A DNA stretch of 64,000 nucleotides, taken from Fistulifera solaris (taxonomy: Eukaryota). The first letter of the stretch is position 1, and each line of letters begins with the position of its first letter. Where the stretch lies: positions 1,426,001 through 1,490,000 of the forward strand of contig AP026164.1 in NCBI GenBank assembly GCA_030295235.1, given 5' to 3'. Below the pieces are notes generated by a model that was not told the origin of the DNA, did no database searches, and saw nothing but the letters and a program-made list of their open reading frames with translations. The translations under genes and the position numbers were made by a program. Below are positions 4,101-38,752 of the stretch, one piece after another.

Positions 4101-4320
4101 TTTCTGGTCGCCGTTGCTTTGATTTATTTGAGCCGAGAGTCCGAATTTCGAAAAGACTACTACTACGTGTCCCGCATCTTTTTTGGAAGACGAACCCCAT
4201 CCTCGAACGCCTATTATCCATCGGTCTGGGCAGCATAGATTTTCTCGCCATGCTTGGACGTCGGTGGAAAAGAATAACCGTAGTGGTGAAAAGCAATCTT
4301 TGCTCGATAATCAATAATGG
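4101..4320 (+). pseudogene. Truncated, frameshifted copy of the 3' end of the COPI-associated gene at 12125-12940
   Basis: FLVAVALIYLSRESEFRKDYY is identical to the 12125 gene, followed by indels. The 5' part of the gene is absent. Confidence 0.85.
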
Positions 4321-5054
4321 CAATTTATGAGGATTTTGAGCTCTAGATGTAATTGGGCCAGCGTTGGATCGTCAAAGGCATCTTGACAGCCGCGATGTAC
4401 TCGTGGAACGTGATGCGATGTACAAGTTACGAAAGACCTCCTCCATTGACAAGGAAGGAGTCAAGATCAAGCACGATACTCTCTAGCTCTTTGCCACTTG
4501 CAAACAACCAAGGACTTTTGCCACCTTCAACATGCGACACGCAACCGAAGTGGTCAATCAGATCCTCATGAAGTCCATTTCAACCTCGTATTACTGCTAT
4601 AGCATCTTCTCTTTAAAAGAGAGTGTTAGCGTCGACACCGTGTCCCTTGCCATTTTCTATTGGCAGAGAAGACACTAATATCACATCAACAACCTTGTTA
4701 TGAAGCATAGATCAAAAACAAGATGGAAATGCTTGAACCTGTACAAGGTACTGGATGCCATGGAACAATCTGTTCATAATGCTGTCATTTTCAGTCGACA
4801 AGAAAATGAATCACAACCAGCTTTTCAAGTTTCTGGATACCCGGCTTTCTTTCCGTTGAACCGATGGCAATATATCTCTTCATCAAATCACCTCATATAA
4901 TATGCTTTGAGAGTGAAAATGGAAGAATCAAGCAACACAGCCATAGATTGCAGACCGATGTAAGTCGTAAAGTTCTAGCTCGAACGAGAAGGATCGCCGC
5001 CCCGTATAAACTGGCTTCCGAAAAAAGGAATGACCGCAACGAATCATCATCCCC

Positions 5055-5058
5055 AAAA
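5055..5058 (-). terminator. Putative Pol III T4 terminator of the permuted tRNA
   Basis: TTTT 8 nt after G37; also present in the second copy (TCTGAATATTTT). Confidence 0.45.
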
Positions 5059-5066
5059 GATTCAGA

Positions 5067-5148
5067 CCGTAGTCAGGCGCCTTGCCATTGGGCCAACGGG
5101 AAAGCACGACGATTTCCCGCCCGGGATTCGAACCCGGAATCTCCTGAT
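5067..5148 (-). tRNA. tRNA-Arg(ACG): Circularly permuted tRNA-Arg(ACG): 3' half 5148-5113, 10-nt spacer, 5' half 5102-5067
   Basis: The minus strand reads ATCAGGAGATTCCGGGTTCGAATCCCGGGCGGGAAA-tcgtcgtgct-TTCCCGTTGGCCCAATGGCAAGGCGCCTGACTACGG. Swapping the halves gives a complete 72-nt cloverleaf: acceptor TTCCCGT/GCGGGAA, anticodon stem CCTGA/TCAGG, loop CT-ACG-GA, T arm CCGGG-TTCGAAT-CCCGG. Confidence 0.9.
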
Positions 5149-5187
5149 ACACTAGCTGACATTGTCATGAAGAGAGGTAATTCGTTG

Positions 5188-5198
5188 ATATAAATATA
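5188..5198 (-). promoter_or_regulatory. TATA-like element ~30 nt upstream of the permuted tRNA leader
   Basis: TATATTTATAT on minus (TATAAATA on plus), with CAA at ~5161-5163 just before the leader. Confidence 0.5.
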
Positions 5199-6616
5199 GC
5201 AGTTAAGGCACTCGTTTTCAGCGTCTTTTTAAGTAATTCGGTGGGGCGGTAACTGGACGGTACATTTTCTCCCAGTCATCCAGTACCGCACAGGTGCGCG
5301 ATGCGACAGAACAATCCCCCATGGTCCTTCCGCCAACAGTCCTCTGCCCCAGTGAAGAATAAAAAAGCAAAAGTACGATCTCCCTGGATGTGAACCATCC
5401 GTCGAACAAGGGCGGAAAAACAACGCAACGCCATGATATGACGCCATGGCTATGCCAACAAAACCGCACAACGACCGACCTCCGCTCTTCGCTCCTCGCT
5501 CCTGCCTCCCCTTGCCCTCGCTCCTCGCTTTCTCCAACTCCAACACTCCTCGAACTCGAACTCGAACCTCGATCCTAAAACTTGTCCTTACGCCAACGGT
5601 GCTCTGTCCGTGTAAAATAATGAAAGAGCAAAAGTAAAATCTTCACTGGATGTGAACCGTCCGTGGAAAGAAGGTCGAGTAGATGCCTAAACGGGACAAG
5701 GACCGCAGCAAGCTTTCCTTCGAGCAGCGCGCGTGTATTGGAATCCGACAACCGATAAGAGACATGATGGCTTTCCTTTTGATCCGATCACGCAAAAGAA
5801 TGATTCATTCCCTGAAAGCTTACTCACATTCACATAGGCTTTTGCAGACGGGGTTACCGGGGCAGAGCAATCAAAGGAAGGCCCTGGCTATTTCGTCTCA
5901 ACGATGACTCTCGTACCTGGCGATTGATGGAAAGCTCTTTCTTCAAATTATTTGTTCCCTTTCTCACCATACCTTGTATTTTTTCGTCAACAGCATGTGA
6001 GACGAGTCGTCGTCGTCCGATTTTTTGTCTTTCGCGCGCACCAAAATGGTGTGGTTCATTGGAAATTTGATTTCCCGCTGGAAAGACGCTCAACGCAGAG
6101 GAGTGAGCCCATTGCTAGCCGTTAATCGTTATTTGCCGAGAAGAGAAGGGAACGCAAATGCGGATAAAATGATAAATAAAGCCTATGAATGTACGGAGTG
6201 AATCACTTTTGACGCCATGGTCGTAATGTAACATTCACGTCCGATGAGGGACTACAATGAGCCAAATGGCCAAAAAGGGAAAGAAACGTAAAAATGACCC
6301 GAACGAGTCACACTGAGTATCCATCAAGTTGTAGAGAAAGACATAGTGAATTTCACACGTCACTCGTTTTGAATAATAATCTTTTCGAATTCACATTCGA
6401 CGAGAGCGAGATCGACGAAAACGTAAAACAAAAATCTTTTCCGAAGCCCTCGCAACGAAGATACCAGGTACCGAGTACGAAAGACGACTGACGTTCCCAA
6501 TTACCAGGTATTTCAACTTTGCACACGTTGAGCTTCTTCTTCATTCTCGAATACAACCATTTGTTCGTTCTTCGACTTGTGTTTTTATTAATTTACAAGA
6601 GCCTTACTAGCATATC

Positions 6617-9600
6617 ATGGCTTCGTTTGCACCTACCAAGGTATGTCATTTCGAGACGAATTCTCATGAATCGCGAACAAGGACACTGCAGCGAATCTCA
6701 CAACATTCTTCGTCGTGGATCAGGCCAAAATGGAGGCTGAAGGGATCTCTCCTTCGGCTATTTCGGCTTTCGAATCGACTTTCAATTCGCTCGTATCAGG
6801 GAATACTGGTTTGATTCCCGAAGACACCATCTCACCAGCGCCGGACCTCGACAACGCCGAAGACTTTTCGAAAAGTATTACGGTCGATCCCGCTTTGCTC
6901 AAAGAAACCGTCGTTCTCAAGCTCAATGGAGGCCTCGGTACCGGCATGGGTCTTGACAAGGCGAAATCGTTGCTCAAAGTCAAAGGCGACGATACTTTCT
7001 TGGACTTGACGGCCAAACAGGTCATGCAAATGCGCGAAGAATACGGAATGAAGGTCAAGTTCATGCTCATGAACTCCTTTTCGACATCCCAAGATACTTT
7101 GGACTTTTTGAAAACCAAGTATCCGGGTTTGGCGTCCGAGGAAGGCCTCGAAATGATGCAAAACAAGGTCCCCAAATTGAATGCGGATACGCTAGAGGTA
7201 CGTCGTGGTTCAACAAAGTGAGTTTTCGTCGGACGTTGGACTCACAATTCTGGTCCCTTCGTTCTCTAGCCCGCCGTGTGCGAAACAGACCCCGACAACG
7301 AGTGGTGTCCTCCGGGTCACGGTGATTTGTATGCCGCCTTGGTCGGCTCCGGATGCTTGGACAGTTTGCTGGCCAGTGGCTTCAAGTACATGTTCGTGTC
7401 CAACTCGGACAACTTGGGGGCGGTCTTGGACTTGGCCATCTTGACCTACTTTGCCCTAAAGGGTTCTTCCTTCATGATGGAGTGCTGTGAACGGACCGAA
7501 AACGACAAGAAGGGTGGTCATTTGGCCGTTCGCAAGGCGGATGGTCAGTTGGTGTTGCGCGAGTCGGCCATGTGTGCCGACGAAGATGAAGACGCCTTTC
7601 AAGATATCACCAAGCATCGATTTTTCAATACCAACAATCTTTGGATCCGCTTGGATATTTTGAAGCAAATCATTGATAAGAACGGTGGCTTTATTCCGTT
7701 GCCGATGATTAAGAACAAGAAGACTGTCGACCCCAAAGATGATTCCTCGCAAGCGGTCTTTCAATTGGAAACGGCCATGGGAGCTGCTATTGAATGCTTC
7801 GATGGCGCCACGGCCATTGTGGTACCACGTACTCGTTTCGCTCCCGTGAAGAAATGCAGTGATTTGCTTCTTCTACGAAGTGATGCTTACACATTGGTGG
7901 ATCACAAGCCCGTTTTGAATCCGGCGTGTGGTGAAGCAGCACCAATTATCGACCTAGACAGCAAGGCGTACAAACTAGTCGGTGCGCTCGAGGAAGCAAC
8001 TGCGGGTGGTGTTCCGTCTTTGGTGAACTGCAAGCGTCTCAAAATCAAGGGAAAAGTTCGCGTGTCGTCGAAAACGAAATTCATTGGTGACGTTGTCATC
8101 ACCAACAGCAGCTCGGAGAGCAAATTCGTTCCCCCGGGTGAGGTCACCGGTAGTCACGACTTGACCGCCGCTGTCGGCATGGGTAAATTGTGTCCTATTA
8201 TTGTCTCGACGACGCCTATTGATGGACAAAAGCCGGGTACTTCCGGTCTTCGCAAGAAAGTCAAGGAATTCATGCAAGAGAATTATCTCGAAAATTTTGT
8301 CCAGTCGACGTTTGATGCCGTGAAAGCCAGCGGAACGGACGTTACCAAGGGTTCTTTGGTCATTGGTGGAGATGGTCGCTACTTCAACGATAAAGCTATC
8401 CAGACGATCATCAAAATGGGTGTTGCGAACGGTGTAAAGCGCTTCTGGATCGGACAAGATGGTCTCTTATCGACTCCTGCCGTTTCAGCCGTAATCCGAG
8501 AACGCGGACCGGGCTGGCAGTCGGCATTTGGTGCATTCATTTTGACGGCCAGTCACAACCCCGGTGGGCCAGACGAAGATTTCGGCATCAAGTACAACGG
8601 CGAGCACGGCCAGCCGGCACCGGAGAAGGTTACGGATGAAATTTATGCCAACACATGCTCTATTAAATCCTACAAGATTTGCAAGGACTTTCCTACAATC
8701 GATGTGTCCATTCCGGGTACCACCAACGTCAAGGCAGATGATGGAAGCAGCGAGGTCAATGTGGAAGTTATTAGCGCTACGGACAACCATGTTGAGTTGC
8801 TCAAATCAATCTTTGATTTTCCTGCGATCAAAGCGCTTCTCGACCGAAAGGACTTTACGATGGTGTACGATACAATGTACGGTGTGAATGGTCCGTACGC
8901 AAAGAAGGTTTTCGTTGAAGAGCTTGGCCAGCCTGAAGAGATTTGCATGAACGCTACTCCCATGGATGATTTTAATGGTGGTCACGCCGACCCTAACCTG
9001 ACCTACGCTAAAGAACTAGTGGCGAAAATGGGACTCGACCGCAACGGAATGAAAATCGACGTCCCTGCAGGAAGTAAAATTCCTGATTTTGGGGCTGCCG
9101 CTGATGGGGATGGCGACCGAAACATGATTCTGGGCAAGCAGTTTTTCGTCAGTCCTTCCGACTCGCTAGCTGTCATCGTCGCAAATGCTGATGCTATCCC
9201 ATTCTTCCGAACTCAGGGTGGACTAAAAGGTGTCGCCCGCTCTATGCCTACTTCCGGGGCTGTCGACCTTGTGGCCAAAGATTTGAACTATAGTCTTTTC
9301 GAGACACCGACAGGTTGGAAATACTTTGGCAATCTAATGGATTCCAAGGAATTATTTGGAGGCGAGGACTACACGCCGTTTATTTGCGGTGAAGAATCCT
9401 TTGGTACAGGATCGAATCACGTTCGTGAAAAGGACGGTATTTGGGCCGTTTTAGCATGGCTGCAAATTCTAGCGGTAGCCAATCCAGACGCCACTCAACC
9501 GCTAACTACGGTCGAGGATATCGTTACCGCGCATTGGCGAAAATACGGACGAAACTACTATTCCCGTTGGGATTTCGAGGGAGTTGATAAAGTCAAGGCG

Positions 9601-9951
9601 ACTGCTATGATAGACAAAATGCGTTCGGATGCTGAAGCAAACACTGGAAAGACTGTCGGAAAGTACAAAATTGCCAAGGCAGACGACTTTACGTATGTTG
9701 ATCCTGTTGATGGAAGTGTTTCGAAGAATCAAGGCATTCGATTTCTCATGGAAGATGGATCTCGCATTATCTTTCGCTTGTCCGGCACAGCCGGTTCTGG
9801 TGCCACTGTTCGTATGTACATCGAGCAGTACGAACCGGAAAAGATCGACATGGTTGCTTCCGAGGCGCTGGGTGATTTAATTCGTATTGCGTTGGACCTT
9901 TGCGACATAAACGGGTTCCTCGGTACCGAGGAACCTACTGTCATTACTTAA
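6617..9951 (+). CDS. UGP/PGM: UDP-glucose pyrophosphorylase / phosphoglucomutase fusion; exons 6617-6640, 6724-7197, 7270-9951
   Basis: UGPase motifs LKLNGGLGTGMG, WCPPGHGD, SNSDNLG and RFAPVKK. PGM motifs GQKPGTSGLRKK, TASHNPGG, DGDGDRN and CGEESFG. Both GT-AG introns restore the frame. Confidence 0.96.
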
Positions 9952-10060: not shown

Positions 10061-10763
10061 TTAAAGGCTTTTCTCATCAAGCCTTGCCCGCTTAGAATCT
10101 CGTTTGTCCTTTTTCTCTTTTCGAGTCGAATGTTTGTCTCGTTTTCGCGCTTCTTTCTTCTGCTCCTTTTTCGCCTTTTTTCTTTTTCTCTTTCCTTCTT
10201 TCCCTCGACAAATTATCGGAAGGAGGTGCGAATAAGTCCTGTCCCTTTTCTAATGTATATTGATTGGCTAGCTGTTGGCCTTCATACGCGTGACCTGGAG
10301 CGGCAAGTTGGTTCCCTTTTTCTTTTTCTTCCAAATGTTTGGGTAAGCGATAATTTTCGACATGATCGATGCGCAGCGGCCGGTCTAAGATCTGTAGCGC
10401 ATCCGAGTACATAGGATGGGATGAGCAGAAATATTTTGTCCACTGTACAAAAATGTTGCCACGTACCTTGACACCAATGAGATTGTCGACGGCCAAAATA
10501 CAAGACTTGGGATCTTCGTACTTGACAAAGCCAAAGCCTTTCGATTTACCGGTTTCCTCATCTCGAATCAAATGTGCGTCCTCTATTTCTCCATACTGAC
10601 TCAAAATGCACAGAATATCACCCTCGGTCAGCTGATGGTCCAAATTTCCGACGTATACCCAAGGGGCATGCGCAAACTGCGAGTGCCACGAACCGGCGGT
10701 TCCAGCCAGACCCCGTTCTAATTCCTGGGCATTAATCTTTTCGATTTCTCGGATGGTATTCAT
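10061..10763 (-). CDS. RBMX2: RBMX2/Ist3/Snu17 RRM splicing factor (RES complex); intron 10392-10466; probable frameshift in the Lys-rich tail
   Basis: MNTIREIEKIN..EL..G...SWH....WVYVGNL...LTEGDIL..SQYGEI; KSKGFGF; LAVDNL; LRIDHV..Y. Confidence 0.9.
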
Positions 10764-11269
10764 AATAGTTTACCGAGATCTTCGAGTAACGTCACTTGTT
10801 AATAAAAAGAGAGAGATTATTCTGCATGAAAACAAGACTTCATCGCCTCACTTTGATGAGATGCAATATAAAAAACCTTGCGTGTTCTCGGCCGCGGACG
10901 CCTCATGACTGAAAGCAGTCGCGGTTCTTCCAACCTACACTTGGGCTGATAGTTTCCACGGATTACAAAAGAAAAACCGCTCTGACAGCACTTTCGAATC
11001 CGCGTGCGAGAAGCCTTTCATTATTATTTTGTTCGTCCTTTTTTTTCTTCAGTTTCGATACCAGTAACACAACGATGCATCGAGCGTCGTCATCGTTCAA
11101 AGTCCGAATAACGAATACCTTCCATAGCACTACAAATTTTTTATAAAGAAACTCAACTACTGCCGTCGCCACGTTGCGGAGCGGGTGCCTTTTCGTTTTC
11201 TGGTGATTTTACGAGGTACATTGACTCGAATTTCTTTGCATACAACGTGGATGACGCTGAACCTGAACA

Positions 11270-12334
11270 GCTCACCAAATTGCTCCTCGTCTTGACCACG
11301 TCGGCTAGTGCATCAGGAGATTTCAGGGTTCGAAACATCCCGGGCAGGAAATCGTCGAAGTTTCCCGTTGGCCCAATGGCAAGGCGCCTGACTACGGTCT
11401 GAATATTTTGTGGATGATGATTCGTTGCGGTCTTTCCTTTTGTTTGTCATCTTTCTCGTTCGAGCTAAGACTGGCATATGCCGGCAATCTATTGCTGCGT
11501 CGCTTGATTCTTCCAGTTTCATTCTCGACGAAAACTCTTTGAGGTGATTTGATGAAGAGATATTACTGTACCTGGTAAGTCGCTTCAGCGGAAAGAATGC
11601 CAGGTATCCAGAAATTTGAAAAGCCTTTCGTGATTTCATGTCTTATCGACTGAACATGACAGCACTACGGATTGGTCTTTTCAATGGCATACAGTACAGG
11701 TACAAGCATTCTCGATCTTGCTTTTGATCAATGCAAAATAATAAGGTTGCTGGACTGAGAGAATTGTGTGCTCTAGCAATAGAAAAATGGCAAAGGACGC
11801 GGTATTGACGCCAACATTTTCTTTGCGATGAGAAGGTGAGATTGCAGTATTACGAGGCTGAAGTCTGACTGCATGAGGATCTGATTGACGACCACTTCGG
11901 TTGCGTGTCGCATGTTGAAGGTGGCAAAGTCCTTGGTTGTTTGCAAAGCGGCGATGATCAAGAGTCTTGTGCCCGATTCTACTTCTCCCTTGTCAATGAA
12001 CAAGGGTTTTCGTAACTTGTACACTCCATAATGTCCCACTCGAACACTATCACTGGACAAGATGCCTTTTACGATCAGTAGCTGGCTCACTCACATTTAA
12101 GTTCAAAATACTCATTAATAGCTACTATTGATTATCGAGCAAAGATTGCTTTTCACCACTACGGTTATTCTTTTCCACCGACGTCCAAGCATGGCGAGAA
12201 AATCCATGCTGCCCAGTCCGATGGATAATAGGCGTTCGAGGATGGGGTTCTACTTCCAGAAAAGCTGCGGGATAGTAGTCTTTTCGAAATTCGGATTCTC
12301 GGCTCAAATAAATCAAAGCAACGGCGACCAGAAA
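11270..12334. repeat. Right arm of the inverted duplication (partner 4101-5185)
   Basis: Reverse-complement match to the left arm. Confidence 0.9.
11312..11397 (+). pseudogene. Degenerate second copy of the permuted tRNA-Arg(ACG)
   Basis: The 5' half (11362-11397) is identical to copy 1. The 3' half (11312-11351) is 4 nt longer, with a disrupted T arm (TCAGGGTTCGAAACATCCCGG) and an acceptor mismatch (GCAGGAA). No upstream TATA. Confidence 0.75.
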
Positions 12335-37019: not shown

Positions 37020-37162
37020 TACCACGTTTTTAACGCTTGCTCAGACGTCAATGACATGTCTCTGTTTCTCACCTTCTATTTAAAATACAACAGCCAGGCT
37101 TTGAACCAACCTAGAACAAAGCAACAAGAAAGGCGCTATTTATTGAAAAGCTCGGGCCAGAG

Positions 37163-38752
37163 ATGCCAGCCCGCAAGATATTCGACTTACGAAATAAAGG
37201 GTGGATCTGCTTTGTTCTGTTGCTTTTCGAAATGCTCGGGCTTCAGTTCCGAATAGCTCGATGCACCCAGGCATCTGCCTTTCATATTCGCCCAAATCAT
37301 CCATCTATTACCCACGTAATGCCCTCTTATTCACTGCACTACCTTGCCACAAGGTTTGCCACACGCTCGTACACAATTTCTGCCCCAAATAAATCTCACG
37401 ACGAACAAACTTTGAAGGACGACGAGTTATTAGATTGGCGAAACCACCCTGCTTTGAATATTTCAATTCAATTTCCGACTTGGATAATACCGGTCGACGG
37501 AAAAGGAATACAGAAACTCTTAAGCGAACCACTACTACAACCTTACTTGGCAACTCGCCTCAATGTCTTGGAACACACGCATCAACGATTGAAAGTCGTT
37601 CAAGACTACTACACAGACGGCCAAAATCGAAATACGACTCATAAAGTTGTTCTTTTGCATCCAGATACCCCTTCTCGAGAGCACCTTCCTCTGGAAATGC
37701 AGCAAATGATGCGCGATTACAAAGTCGACTATCCCGGTCCCTTGGTTCCTGTTTCATTTAACTACAAACAGTTTACTGCGTCGTATGTCTTATCGAAGCT
37801 TCTACCACCGGAAGCGCACCCTCCACCAACATCCTTCGAAACCATCGGACATGTGGCACATTTGAATTTGCGGGAAAATCACCTCCCCTACAAACGTCTG
37901 ATTGGAGAAGTCTTGTTGGAAACGCTGCCTACGATTGAAACAGTCATACACAAAGTGGGAGAAGTCACGGGACCGTTTCGAACCTACGATTTTTCGGTAT
38001 TGGCGGGTCGCCCGGACACGGCCGTTAAAGTGACCGAAAGTGGGATTCAAATACATTTTGACGTGGCAGAAGTATATTGGTCGGCACGCTTATCAGAGGA
38101 ACGACAACGCATTTTGAAATATGAAGTTAAGCCAGGAGACTTTATAGCTGACGCGTTTTGTGGAGTGGGAGCTATTTGTCTTATGGCTGCTGCTCAGCTC
38201 AATTGCACAATCTCGGCCAATGACTGGAACCCGAAAGCAATGGAGTACCTGAAGGCGAACACTGTGTTGAACGGAGTGGAGGAAAACTTTAAGAAGCTGT
38301 CCTGCACTGATGCTTACGACTTTCTAATGGACCTGGGTCTCGCGGATGATAAGAAAGAGACCAGGCTTCCCGATCATGTTTTGCTCAACTTTCCATTGGA
38401 AGCTCCGCGATTTTTGGGAGCACTTCGTTGGTGGCCAGTCAAAAGTCCATCGAATTTCAAACGCAACGATAAGGTTGAAACGCACCGCAGTCCACGTGTG
38501 CACGTGTATACGTTTGCCCGTGCGGACCCCGAGACCAATCGGAGCGCCGAGGACGTAGCAGTAGATTTGATTGCTTCCAATCTGCTTCCCTTGGGAGATT
38601 CGACTCATCGCAAAGATGAACTTGACAATGATTATGGGTGTAAGGTCAATGTTCATGACGTAAGAGATGTAGCGCCTGGAAAGGTTGTCATGTGCGTCAG
38701 TTTCACCGCGACACCGAGACTGTTAAGGTGTATGCAAGGGGATTTTTCCTAG
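37163..38752 (+). CDS. TRM5: tRNA (guanine-37-N1)-methyltransferase Trm5 family, possibly organelle-targeted
   Basis: SFETIGHVAHLNLR, VYWSARLSEERQR, DAFCGVG, ANDWNP, LNFP, DVAPGKVVMCVSF. Confidence 0.9.
   Translation: MPARKIFDLRNKGWICFVLLLFEMLGLQFRIARCTQASAFHIRPNHPSITHVMPSYSLHYLATRFATRSYTISAPNKSHDEQTLKDDELLDWRNHPALNISIQFPTWIIPVDGKGIQKLLSEPLLQPYLATRLNVLEHTHQRLKVVQDYYTDGQNRNTTHKVVLLHPDTPSREHLPLEMQQMMRDYKVDYPGPLVPVSFNYKQFTASYVLSKLLPPEAHPPPTSFETIGHVAHLNLRENHLPYKRLIGEVLLETLPTIETVIHKVGEVTGPFRTYDFSVLAGRPDTAVKVTESGIQIHFDVAEVYWSARLSEERQRILKYEVKPGDFIADAFCGVGAICLMAAAQLNCTISANDWNPKAMEYLKANTVLNGVEENFKKLSCTDAYDFLMDLGLADDKKETRLPDHVLLNFPLEAPRFLGALRWWPVKSPSNFKRNDKVETHRSPRVHVYTFARADPETNRSAEDVAVDLIASNLLPLGDSTHRKDELDNDYGCKVNVHDVRDVAPGKVVMCVSFTATPRLLRCMQGDFS

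Follow-up and report, generated by a model that had tools for sequence, protein, structure and literature searches.

Soma's 2014 review (PMC3978253) records eukaryotic permuted tRNA genes in a single red alga, a small number of green algae and a nucleomorph of green-algal origin, and a 2026 review (PMC13578239) gives no further eukaryotic lineages. The intervening sequences in Table 1 of the 2014 review span 1–74 bp, and elsewhere in its text the permuted isoacceptors are described as not conserved among organisms. The closest described counterparts of the gene reported below are the type II genes of the Mamiellophyceae (Ostreococcus, Micromonas). Like our gene, these are nuclear genes of unicellular algae, with a 3′ half, a short spacer and a 5′ half in that order on one strand, a junction between tRNA positions 37 and 38 (37/38), no intron and an upstream region that is AT-rich or TATA-like. 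The O. tauri tRNA-Arg(TCT) gene, for example, is type II, its intervening sequence being 11 bp long (Maruyama et al. 2010, as entered in Table 1 of PMC3978253). Expression of the Mamiellophyceae genes was shown by Northern blotting and RT-PCR; the evidence on the diatom gene comes from sequence.

In Cyanidioschyzon merolae (PMC3978253), 11 of 43 tRNA genes are permuted, and six of the 11 are type II like our gene. Shared features are a TATA-like box <50 bp upstream, a downstream T-stretch, an intervening sequence free of signals, a CCA end that is not encoded and a proposed maturation via a circular intermediate; sections 4–5 of the review describe upstream TATA-like boxes as the rule in this alga. 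The C. merolae genes differ in using four junction positions and carrying further introns, whereas the diatom loci use 37/38 only, and the tRNA genes that neighbour the diatom loci are conventional. Circular intermediates and aminoacylation were shown experimentally in C. merolae; the diatom case rests on gene sequences. The tRNA-Ser genes of the Bigelowiella natans nucleomorph and the Auxenochlorella genes are likewise type II with very short spacers, and likewise came to light through an incomplete tRNAscan set (PMC12633428). The former sit in the relict nucleus of a green alga and the latter in the nucleus of a trebouxiophyte, whereas our gene lies in the host nucleus of an alga whose secondary plastid is red-derived. 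Finally, Thermofilum pendens has essential isoacceptors (tRNA-iMet and tRNA-Tyr) only in permuted form, as we suspect for diatoms, but with a 59/60 junction, additional introns and an archaeal endonuclease that depends on the bulge-helix-bulge (Chan, Cozen and Lowe 2011, as tabulated in PMC3978253).

Our gene (copy 1) lies on the minus strand of a 64-kb stretch of DNA (the window), where the order can be read directly as 3′ half (5148–5113), spacer (5112–5103) and 5′ half (5102–5067). The 3′ half has 36 nt, corresponding to tRNA positions 38–73 (A38 to the discriminator A73), and holds the 3′ strand of the anticodon stem, the variable loop, the T arm with box B and the 3′ acceptor strand. The 5′ half, also 36 nt and covering positions 1–37, holds the 5′ acceptor strand, U8, the D arm (box A, G18G19, C20) and the 5′ strand of the anticodon stem, and ends in the loop bases C32 U33 A34 C35 G36 G37, with the ACG anticodon at 5070–5068. 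The 10-nt spacer has no T-run and would form the acceptor-stem loop of the precursor; CCA is not encoded, the first spacer bases being TCG. We count this length as within the range of the Mamiellophyceae spacers (11–64; PMC3978253). The junction is unambiguous because the first base of the trailer misfits position 38 and the last base of the leader misfits position 37.

When the halves were sliced out and rejoined by script, ARAGORN called a 72-nt tRNA-Arg(acg) cloverleaf, as the initial annotation had claimed, and its description of a permuted tRNA-Arg(ACG) with a 37/38 junction and a 10-nt spacer was borne out. The single junction restores a canonical cloverleaf with an acceptor stem of 7 bp (one G.U), a D stem of 3 bp plus a 13:22 mismatch, and anticodon and T stems of 5 bp each. 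The consensus elements U8, A14, A15:U48, G18G19, A21, U33 and G37 are legible, and in the T arm T54T55C56, A58 and G53:C61 are all present. Using a half-swapped covariance model (R1), the stretch 5148–5067 scored 95.9 bits, with copy 1 itself in the training set. As a control for chance, we filtered for a T arm, a 7-bp acceptor hairpin across the spacer, U8 and GG. This resulted in one site in the window (copy 1) and none in each of 100 first-order Markov surrogates.

Standard scanners were expected to miss the gene, and did. In the unrearranged 64-kb window ARAGORN found no tRNA and no Rfam family reached its gathering score, as expected for a permuted gene; between 4950 and 5300 there was no match to RF00005 up to E = 10, and so no collinear match to a tRNA model. 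The best sub-threshold Rfam match was YrlA (RF02553; 20.1 bits, E = 0.074). This would suit a tRNA-like, non-decoding RNA of the YrlA type or a tRNA-derived, SINE-like repeat, and the gene is indeed multi-copy in one sequencing run (X1, below) and sits within a 1.1-kb duplicated segment. However, the YrlA gathering score is 69 bits, and the family is bacterial and phage-borne and has no anticodon arm. The present gene retains the two strands of that arm, U33, ACG and G37, all of them intact and without variation. Between species the gene is shared but its flanks are not, the opposite of a mobile repeat, and many copies lie inside clusters of ordinary tRNA genes. We therefore regard a mimic or repeat as very unlikely, and the permuted tRNA gene remains the preferred reading.

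The suggestion that the genome is nuclear and diatom-like was well founded. The window encodes VPS13, a Polo kinase, MCM and a fusion of UGPase and PGM. The best named match of the fusion protein is from Fistulifera solaris (98%), followed by other raphid pennates (77–83%), which identifies the window as diatom nuclear DNA.

A second, degenerate permuted tRNA-Arg(ACG) (copy 2) lies on the plus strand at 11312–11397, 6.2 kb from copy 1. An initial remark that no other halves lie nearby is thus wrong at the 6-kb scale. Both copies sit in the arms of a 1.1-kb inverted duplication (4101–5188 and 11272–12334; 79% identity by blastn) that brackets the UGPase/PGM gene and a gene with an RRM. The 5′ half of copy 2 is identical to that of copy 1 at 36/36 positions. 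Its T arm carries insertions (one base in the stem, three in the loop), its acceptor stem is mismatched at 5:68 and it lacks the TATA-like box. These are most of the marks of a pseudogene, and copy 2 is probably one. Model R1 gave it 69.6 bits, with the insertions and a non-standard pair flagged. An ARAGORN call on the rejoined copy 2 was rejected as a sign of function; it relies on padding bases added to the input and a poor T stem. Copy 1, by comparison, has neither broken stems nor lost flanking signals, and its order is conserved in other diatoms (below).

The flanks of copy 1 carry candidate transcription signals on the same strand. A TATA-like element, TATATTTATAT, is found at 5188–5198, 40–50 nt upstream of the first coding base, and alignment of the two copies shows that it is the element deleted in copy 2. 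By analogy with known upstream boxes, TATATTTATAT is a candidate upstream Pol III promoter. The 12-nt trailer (5055–5066) ends in TTTT (5058–5055), a candidate Pol III terminator. As motif matches, then, there is a TATA-like box upstream and a TTTT downstream, and neither in the spacer. Among 49 unique diatom loci recovered from metagenomes (described below), TTTT occurs ≤25 nt downstream of the gene in 38, and a TATA-like motif upstream in only 23 by a loose motif list.

Between the TATA-like element and the gene is a leader of ~12 nt (5149–5160), a candidate partner strand for a relaxed bulge-helix-bulge by pairing drawn by hand. Such a structure, or a pairing of anticodon and intron, is what the splicing endonuclease recognizes. 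Across the diatom family the leader has the consensus [G/T][T/C]AG NN^, with G at −3 in 41/49 loci and A at −4 in 37/49. These two bases complement C32 and U33, which is the anticodon-intron pair of eukaryotic pre-tRNAs. All four pairs of the central helix are possible in 19/49 loci, and G−3 with C32 in 41/49. The motif of the window copy is displaced by one base, as in five loci with GTAG at −7 to −4: TAG at −6 to −4 complements C32-U33-A34, and UCAG at −11 to −8 complements trailer bases +2 to +5. For the window copy, this shift allows no canonical 3-nt/4-bp/3-nt bulge-helix-bulge but a relaxed form, which has a central helix of 3 bp with a C.C mismatch, a canonical 5′ bulge, an outer helix of 4 bp and a 3′ bulge of 4 nt. 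In a minimum-energy fold constrained to the cloverleaf, the end of the leader pairs directly with bases 33–36 and not as a bulge-helix-bulge. The free fold of 5050–5175 is not a cloverleaf and has an ordinary energy (z = −0.72); free folds of tRNAs are often uninformative.

To explore conservation, we used a permuted pattern with 22 fixed bases in one metagenome scan. This resulted in 57 matches, of which 56 (54 of 55 by locus) are the same permuted tRNA-Arg(ACG), and ARAGORN calls each of the 56 once rejoined. With 22 bases fixed, an anticodon stem without variation is a consequence of the pattern itself, which also could not have returned non-permuted forms or more divergent ones. Proteins encoded in the flanks place loci in Skeletonema, Discostella, a Leptocylindrus-like lineage and another raphid pennate. 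A neighbour at locus L049 is identical to a Discostella pseudostelligera protein; neighbours at L021, L002 and L036 fall in clusters at ≥90% with Skeletonema proteins; a PyShell protein at L029 is 94.6% identical to one of Skeletonema marinoi; and the best named match of ArgJ at L019 is from Leptocylindrus danicus (74%). At L046, L052 and L010 the permuted gene is divergent from a UGPase/PGM gene, matching the gene order of the window (65% amino-acid identity across 291 residues). Had relatives lost the permuted order, this would have counted against the gene; instead the order is kept in Skeletonema, in Discostella, in the Leptocylindrus-like lineage and in the syntenic pennate.

Many of the permuted copies lie within clusters of ordinary tRNA genes, the adjacent genes (Ala, Glu, Leu, Ser, Lys, Gly, Tyr, Met, Val and Arg-TCG) all being conventional, and in some diatoms the permuted gene follows a conventional tRNA gene by 4–9 nt. 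Position 20 in the permuted family is C or U, and C or U at this position has been reported for diatom nuclear tRNA-Arg (PMC8975779). Green picoalgae, in which permuted tRNAs are known, were considered as the origin of the matches and ruled out by the diatom flanks: the G+C content of the loci is 0.36–0.56 and every placeable flank is diatom. A collection of viral contigs, which is unsuited to the question of permuted diatom genes, gave no match to the permuted pattern; the contiguous anticodon-arm motif found two conventional tRNA-Arg genes of phage/bacterial type with unrelated D arms.

Alignment of 41 distinct gene sequences shows that the rejoined structure is maintained while the spacer is not. 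Standard pairs make up 99.5% of 820 pair cells, with one acceptor mismatch in 4/41 sequences. Two-sided changes are present at 4/7 acceptor pairs and 2/5 T-stem pairs. Both stems thus covary across the spacer; none of 500 shuffles reached the covariation score, and slid controls pair at 27–53%. Spacers vary from 3 to 21 nt (compared with 5 bp in B. natans) and differ by 0.585 per site against 0.108 for the halves. There are 19 distinct mature sequences, a single one of which is paired with 10 different spacers. The covariation and the turnover of the spacer, together with presence in at least four diatom lineages and synteny, argue for purifying selection on the rejoined structure, and we take copy 1 to be a real, selected type II permuted tRNA gene.

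These data bear on whether the locus is a dead relic, in which a conventional tRNA-Arg gene was long ago duplicated in tandem, only the inner halves are left and the working gene is elsewhere. Tandem duplication is the accepted model for the origin of permuted genes (PMC3978253). Locus L030 has two tandem permuted copies across which ARAGORN reads a conventional gene with a 19-nt intron, the leaders of L001, L013 and L044 still resemble a 5′ anticodon arm, and copy 2 of the window is decaying. However, a relic does not preserve compensatory changes on either side of a freely varying spacer, nor would it hold one mature sequence with 10 spacers, a conserved leader motif or terminators, and relics are not expected to persist across groups as distant as raphid pennates, Thalassiosirales and a Leptocylindrus-like group. 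We consider a relic very improbable.

A conventional, intron-containing unit could also be assembled from two copies, either in cis within tandem arrays or by trans-splicing between loci. The arrangement at L030, with its 19-nt spacer between tandem copies, and at L032, where the copies are 498 nt apart, would permit this. But just 2/54 loci have two copies in one locus, and the nearest other copy to that of the window is 6.2 kb off, on the opposite strand and degenerate. In 38/49 loci a TTTT ≤25 nt beyond the 5′ half would stop transcription before any downstream 3′ half, and the acceptor strands that covary are those linked by the short spacer. Such a unit is thus very improbable.

Contigs from sequencing runs bear on whether misassembly of a tandem tRNA array could have produced the order. 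De Bruijn contigs of run X1 do break at 5074–5136, because the stretch is repeated, but a variant copy in X1 (contig record 3, 1144 nt) covers 5055–5136 in the order trailer, 5′ half, spacer, 3′ half, and a 251-nt metatranscriptome contig of X3, a run from another study, spans 5072–5320 in the same permuted order with 5 differences in 249. X1 holds at least three gene copies, whose listed differences in this stretch sit in the spacer; the spacer variants in X1 and X3 are at 5103, 5105, 5106 and 5108. X1 may be the window's own source and so is not independent evidence. The same order is, however, found in 54 independent metagenome loci from many assemblies, which makes an artefact extremely unlikely. 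The X3 contig, the only one from an RNA library, starts 170 nt upstream of the gene and hence looks like carried-over DNA or read-through rather than a Pol III product. Coverage in run X2 is limited to 4482–4887, and run X4 gave no alignment. In a mature tRNA or a conventional gene, the end of the 5′ half would run straight into the start of the 3′ half; no such 5067→5148 joint was present among the contigs of four runs, where contigs and 36-nt halves make its absence uninformative.

We conclude, with a probability of roughly 85%, that the locus is a working permuted nuclear gene, of type II in Soma's classification, for a cytosolic tRNA-Arg(ACG, read as ICG) in a raphid pennate, and that this layout is usual across diatoms. 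Its basis is the observed gene order, cloverleaf, covariation, leader motif, flanking signals, conservation and synteny. Retention of the same layout in distant diatom lineages suggests that this essential tRNA is probably made by cutting, circularizing and re-opening a precursor. By analogy with Cyanidioschyzon and green algae, Pol III would start between a few bases and ~12 nt upstream of A38, positioned in the window by the TATA-like box, and would end at TTTT; where the gene trails a conventional tRNA by 4–9 nt, it is probably transcribed by read-through from that gene. The transcript would fold as a normal cloverleaf with the spacer closing the acceptor stem and the anticodon loop open. 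The leader would pair with loop bases 32–35 and partly with the trailer, such that the ends mimic the splice sites of an ordinary 37/38 intron. The tRNA splicing endonuclease would then cut off leader and trailer, and tRNA ligase would join G37 to A38, so that tRNA and spacer form one circle. Cuts by RNase P and tRNase Z at positions 1 and 73 would release the spacer, before CCA addition and the deamination of A34 to inosine. Homologues of the Trl1-type ligase are said to occur in diatoms (PMC4090602).

The kind of gene is known but its lineage is new: it lies in the host nucleus of a diatom, a stramenopile and so of a different supergroup from the Mamiellophyceae. Its isoacceptor was not listed before either: Arg(ACG) is found in 0/34 permuted genes in Table 1 of PMC3978253. 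We found no report of permuted tRNA genes in diatoms in the full-text literature searched or in that table, in agreement with the initial annotation. Whereas known permuted isoacceptors vary by organism, this one is kept across deep diatom lineages with clear compensatory evolution, an unusual stability.

Because standard scanners miss a permuted gene, the tRNA is probably missing from diatom annotations. Consequently annotations, analyses of codon usage and tRNA adaptation, and identity surveys probably lack the tRNA expected for CGU, CGC and CGA. The splicing endonuclease and ligase of diatoms would have to circularize precursors. The tandem copies at L030 and the genes 4–9 nt behind an ordinary tRNA give hints to the origin of the layout and to how the problem of an inverted promoter was solved. 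More tentatively, at somewhat under even odds, diatoms may have no nuclear source of tRNA-Arg(ICG) other than the permuted gene, and it may date to their common ancestor; genes of the algal endosymbiont may even have brought the layout with them. If the gene is the sole source, reading of CGU, CGC and CGA in the cytosol of main primary producers of the ocean would depend on circular-RNA maturation. If it is both sole and ancestral, this would explain gaps in diatom tRNA annotations and provide a genetically tractable system, in Phaeodactylum and Thalassiosira, for how a permuted tRNA gene becomes fixed.

Copy 1, on the minus strand of the window, is a circularly permuted tRNA-Arg(ACG) gene that is genuine and under selection. 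Its 3' half (tRNA positions 38-73; 5148-5113) precedes its 5' half (positions 1-37; 5102-5067) across a 10-nt spacer (5112-5103). Read in order, the 3' half supplies A38, the 3' anticodon-stem strand, a 5-nt variable loop, the T arm (loop TTCGAAT), the 3' acceptor strand and a discriminator A; the 5' half supplies the 5' acceptor strand, U8, the D arm with G18G19, the 5' anticodon-stem strand and the loop as far as G37, with the anticodon ACG at 5070-5068. The 37/38 junction is unambiguous: at neither half could the adjoining bases serve as position 37 or 38. When the halves were cut and rejoined by script, ARAGORN called a 72-nt tRNA-Arg(acg) in which all four stems form; this and the direct reading bear out the initial annotation, which had proposed such a gene with its halves swapped around a 10-nt spacer. 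Its further claim that standard scanners can miss permuted genes also holds here: on the window as it stands, ARAGORN returned no tRNA and Rfam no family at gathering score. A permissive Rfam scan of 4950-5300 gave no tRNA match, and its top match was YrlA (20.1 bits; gathering score 69). The tRNA-like module of YrlA has a rotated order, as in copy 1. A filter requiring, in this order, a T arm, an acceptor hairpin of 7 bp that spans a spacer, U8 and GG found one site in the window, copy 1, and none in 100 first-order Markov surrogates.

The host was identified from the UGPase/PGM fusion gene (6670-9951, plus strand), a fusion described in diatoms and Phytophthora in the available text of Kroth et al. 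(PMC2173943). The closest named match of the window protein is from Fistulifera solaris (98% identity), followed by Seminavis, Mayamaea, Epithemia and Nitzschia (77-83%), and the commonest phylum in its Atlas cluster is Bacillariophyta. By these matches, the window is nuclear DNA of a raphid pennate diatom, either F. solaris itself or a species very close to it. It also carries a TYW2/TRM5-like tRNA methyltransferase gene (37115-38749, plus strand), which is ordinary and apparently unconnected with the permuted gene.

A misassembly could in principle create a permuted order, but is ruled out by contigs that cross the locus in two sequencing runs, X1 (organism A, possibly the window's own source) and X3 (an unrelated freshwater metatranscriptome). 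X1 covers the copy 1 locus, its contigs breaking at 5074-5136, where summed depth is 73.6-87.5 compared with 15-29 in most flanking bins; this stretch is therefore repeated. One 717-nt X1 contig runs on with letters identical to copy 2, the window's degenerate relative of copy 1. Another, of 1144 nt, covers 5055-5136 and differs from the window at 5103, 5105 and 5106, all within the spacer; it represents a third copy. In X3, a 251-nt contig spans 5072-5320 with 5 differences in 249 positions; the four listed lie in the spacer (5108) and upstream (5200, 5214 and 5220). Since this contig starts 170 nt upstream of the gene, it is no sign of copy 1 expression.

Relatives were sought by a single pass through JGI metagenome contigs, with a pattern in which the first bases of the 3' half are followed, after a gap of 45-75 nt, by the last bases of the 5' half. 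This gave 57 matches at 55 loci (G+C 0.36-0.56). One, L016, lacks tRNA features; the remaining 56 are permuted tRNA-Arg(ACG) genes whose spacers measure 3-21 nt, and ARAGORN called a tRNA in all 56 once the halves were rejoined by script. Neighbouring genes point to the hosts. The phosphoribulokinase beside L049 is letter-for-letter the NCBI protein of Discostella pseudostelligera, and proteins neighbouring L021, L002 and L036 fall in clusters of at least 90% identity with Skeletonema marinoi and S. dohrnii proteins. L029 and L003 neighbour diatom pyrenoid-shell proteins that match the same S. marinoi protein at 94.6% and 82% identity, respectively. The closest named match of the L019 ArgJ is from Leptocylindrus danicus (74%), and the named matches legible among its best 120 are diatoms. 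L046, L052 and L010 share synteny with the window: a UGPase/PGM gene starts ~1.2 kb away from the permuted gene and is divergent from it, and its product has 65% identity with window 6682-7455 over 291 residues, Seminavis and Cylindrotheca being the closest named matches. Because of these flanking proteins and this synteny, the layout can be assigned to raphid pennates, Thalassiosirales and a Leptocylindrus-like lineage. The permuted tRNA-Arg(ACG) gene is conserved across diatoms, and loci in all three groups answer in the affirmative the question raised with the initial annotation of whether relatives keep the permuted order.

Selection on the rejoined tRNA was assessed in A2, an alignment of 41 distinct permuted genes (820 cells under the permuted cloverleaf). 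Standard pairs fill 99.5% of cells, against an average of 92.8% in shuffles and 27-53% in slid registers; the covariation score, which 0 of 500 shuffles reached, was 0.187 versus 0.061. Both sides have changed in four of the seven acceptor pairs, including 5:68 (A-U, n = 23; G-C, n = 12; U-A, n = 3; C-G, n = 2) and 2:71 (A-U, n = 24; U-A, n = 17), and in two of the five T-stem pairs, whilst four sequences have one acceptor mismatch each. The anticodon stem is invariant by design of the search pattern and is uninformative. There are 19 distinct mature sequences, one of which is paired with 10 different spacers. Divergence per site is 0.108 in the halves (leaving out 22 pattern-fixed bases) versus 0.585 in spacers of equal length. 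Position 20 is C or U, so that the permuted genes lack A20, like diatom nuclear tRNA-Arg as described in the available text of Igloi (PMC8975779). The acceptor end is unusual for a eukaryotic tRNA: at pair 1:72 (A2 columns 35 and 58), 40 of 41 sequences have a G.U wobble and the window alone has U-A, and the discriminator is A in the window and U or G in the metagenome genes.

By blastn of the metagenome loci against the window, followed by reading, we located copy 2 at 11312-11397 (plus strand). Its 5' half is identical to that of copy 1; the T-arm stem carries one additional base and the T-arm loop three, its acceptor pair 5:68 is C.A, and the TATA-like box is deleted (A1, the alignment of the two copies). 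R1, a model built from A2, gives 95.9 bits for copy 1 and 69.6 bits for copy 2, with no other match in the window. Copy 2 is probably a pseudogene. The copies sit at the inner ends, one per arm, of a 1.1-kb inverted duplication (4101-5188 versus 12334-11272; blastn, 79% identity) that brackets the UGPase/PGM gene and an RRM-protein gene (10095-10769, minus strand). The 44 nt past the 5' half (5023-5066 minus versus 11398-11441 plus), which take in the T-run, are identical at 41 of 44 positions, compared with 79% for the whole repeat, and carry a box C-like AUGAUGA motif just beyond the TTTT. Rfam gave no match to these 44 nt, which may represent another small RNA or a terminator context that has been conserved.

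Motif matching places a TATA-like run at 5198-5188, 40-50 nt upstream of A38, and TTTT at 5058-5055, 9-12 nt past G37 (both minus strand); the copy 1 spacer has no T-run. This arrangement matches the one described for Cyanidioschyzon permuted genes, in which a TATA-like sequence lies no more than 50 bp upstream, the intervening sequence is free of signals and a T-stretch follows downstream (Soma review, PMC3978253). The internal box B (T arm) of copy 1 lies ahead of box A (D arm), and the usual TFIIIC geometry is therefore inverted.

Across 49 loci, unique once 20-nt flanks are counted in, the leader before the cut has the consensus [G/T][T/C]AG NN, with G at -3 in 41, A at -4 in 37, T at -5 in 27 and G at -6 in 26. 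The consensus bases at -3 to -6 are complementary to C32, U33, A34 and C35, and all four pair together in 19 of the 49. Eukaryotic splicing endonucleases require an anticodon-intron pairing that leaves a 3-nt bulge at the 3' splice site, and the predicted leader pairing corresponds to it. In copy 1 the motif is one base farther from the cut, as in five loci with GTAG at -7 to -4. Its best hand-drawn junction, a tentative and relaxed bulge-helix-bulge, combines a 3-bp central helix and a C.C mismatch with a canonical 3-nt 5' bulge (G36, G37, +1), a 4-nt 3' bulge and a 4-bp outer helix (leader -11 to -8 with trailer +2 to +5). The minimum-energy fold with the cloverleaf enforced instead pairs the leader end with 33-36.

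At many loci the permuted gene lies within a cluster of conventional tRNA genes (Ala, Glu, Leu, Ser, Lys, Gly, Tyr, Met, Val and Arg-TCG). In at least seven (L009, L014, L025, L040, L042, L048 and L050), a conventional tRNA-Met, -Lys or -Val gene ends 4-9 nt ahead of the permuted 3' half. This proximity suggests co-transcription from the internal promoter of the preceding gene, and such dicistronic precursors would offer a way round the inverted A/B-box order. With only 4-9 nt between, the leader, whose bases pair with the anticodon loop, overlaps or abuts the 3' end of the preceding tRNA. L001, L013, L027 and L044 share a conserved diatom cluster, Ala(AGC)-Glu(CTC)-Leu(AAG)-[permuted Arg(ACG)]-Ser(AGA)-Lys(CTT)-Gly(TCC)-Tyr(GTA, with intron), in which Arg is the one permuted gene.

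At L030 (678-852, minus strand) two permuted copies stand in tandem, 19 nt apart; taking the inner 5' and 3' halves together, ARAGORN calls a conventional tRNA-Arg(acg) gene interrupted by a 19-nt intron. Readable both ways, this locus resembles the proposed tandem-duplication intermediate and illustrates a route to permutation. The leaders of L001, L013 and L044 resemble the 5' anticodon-arm strand and loop start; possibly they are vestiges of an upstream tRNA copy lost after tandem duplication.

Beyond the gene order, fold, selection and signals observed here, an RNA pathway can be proposed by analogy with Cyanidioschyzon and green algae, as covered in the available text of PMC3978253. Pol III transcription would begin shortly before A38 and end at the T-run, and the transcript would fold into a cloverleaf with the spacer closing the acceptor stem. 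The splicing endonuclease would cut off leader and trailer, and tRNA ligase would join G37 to A38 into a circle; Trl1 homologues are said to exist in diatoms in the accessible part of PMC4090602. RNase P and tRNase Z would open the circle at positions 1 and 73, CCA would be added, and A34 would become I34 through ADAT, a conversion stated in general terms in the accessible part of PMC8007984.

The 34 permuted genes in Table 1 of Soma 2014 (PMC3978253) come from C. merolae, two Ostreococcus, two Micromonas, the B. natans nucleomorph and Thermofilum pendens, and include no Arg(ACG) and no stramenopile. The available text of a 2026 review (PMC13578239), the PlantRNA 2.0 preprint and the tRNAscan-SE 2.0 paper holds no diatom case, and that of the Auxenochlorella paper describes a permuted tRNA in a trebouxiophyte. 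In the full texts searched, largely from outside subscription journals, we found no report of permuted, split or disrupted tRNAs in diatoms or stramenopiles. Circularly permuted tRNA genes as a kind were already known; what is new against that literature is a major lineage, the diatoms, and an isoacceptor, Arg(ACG).
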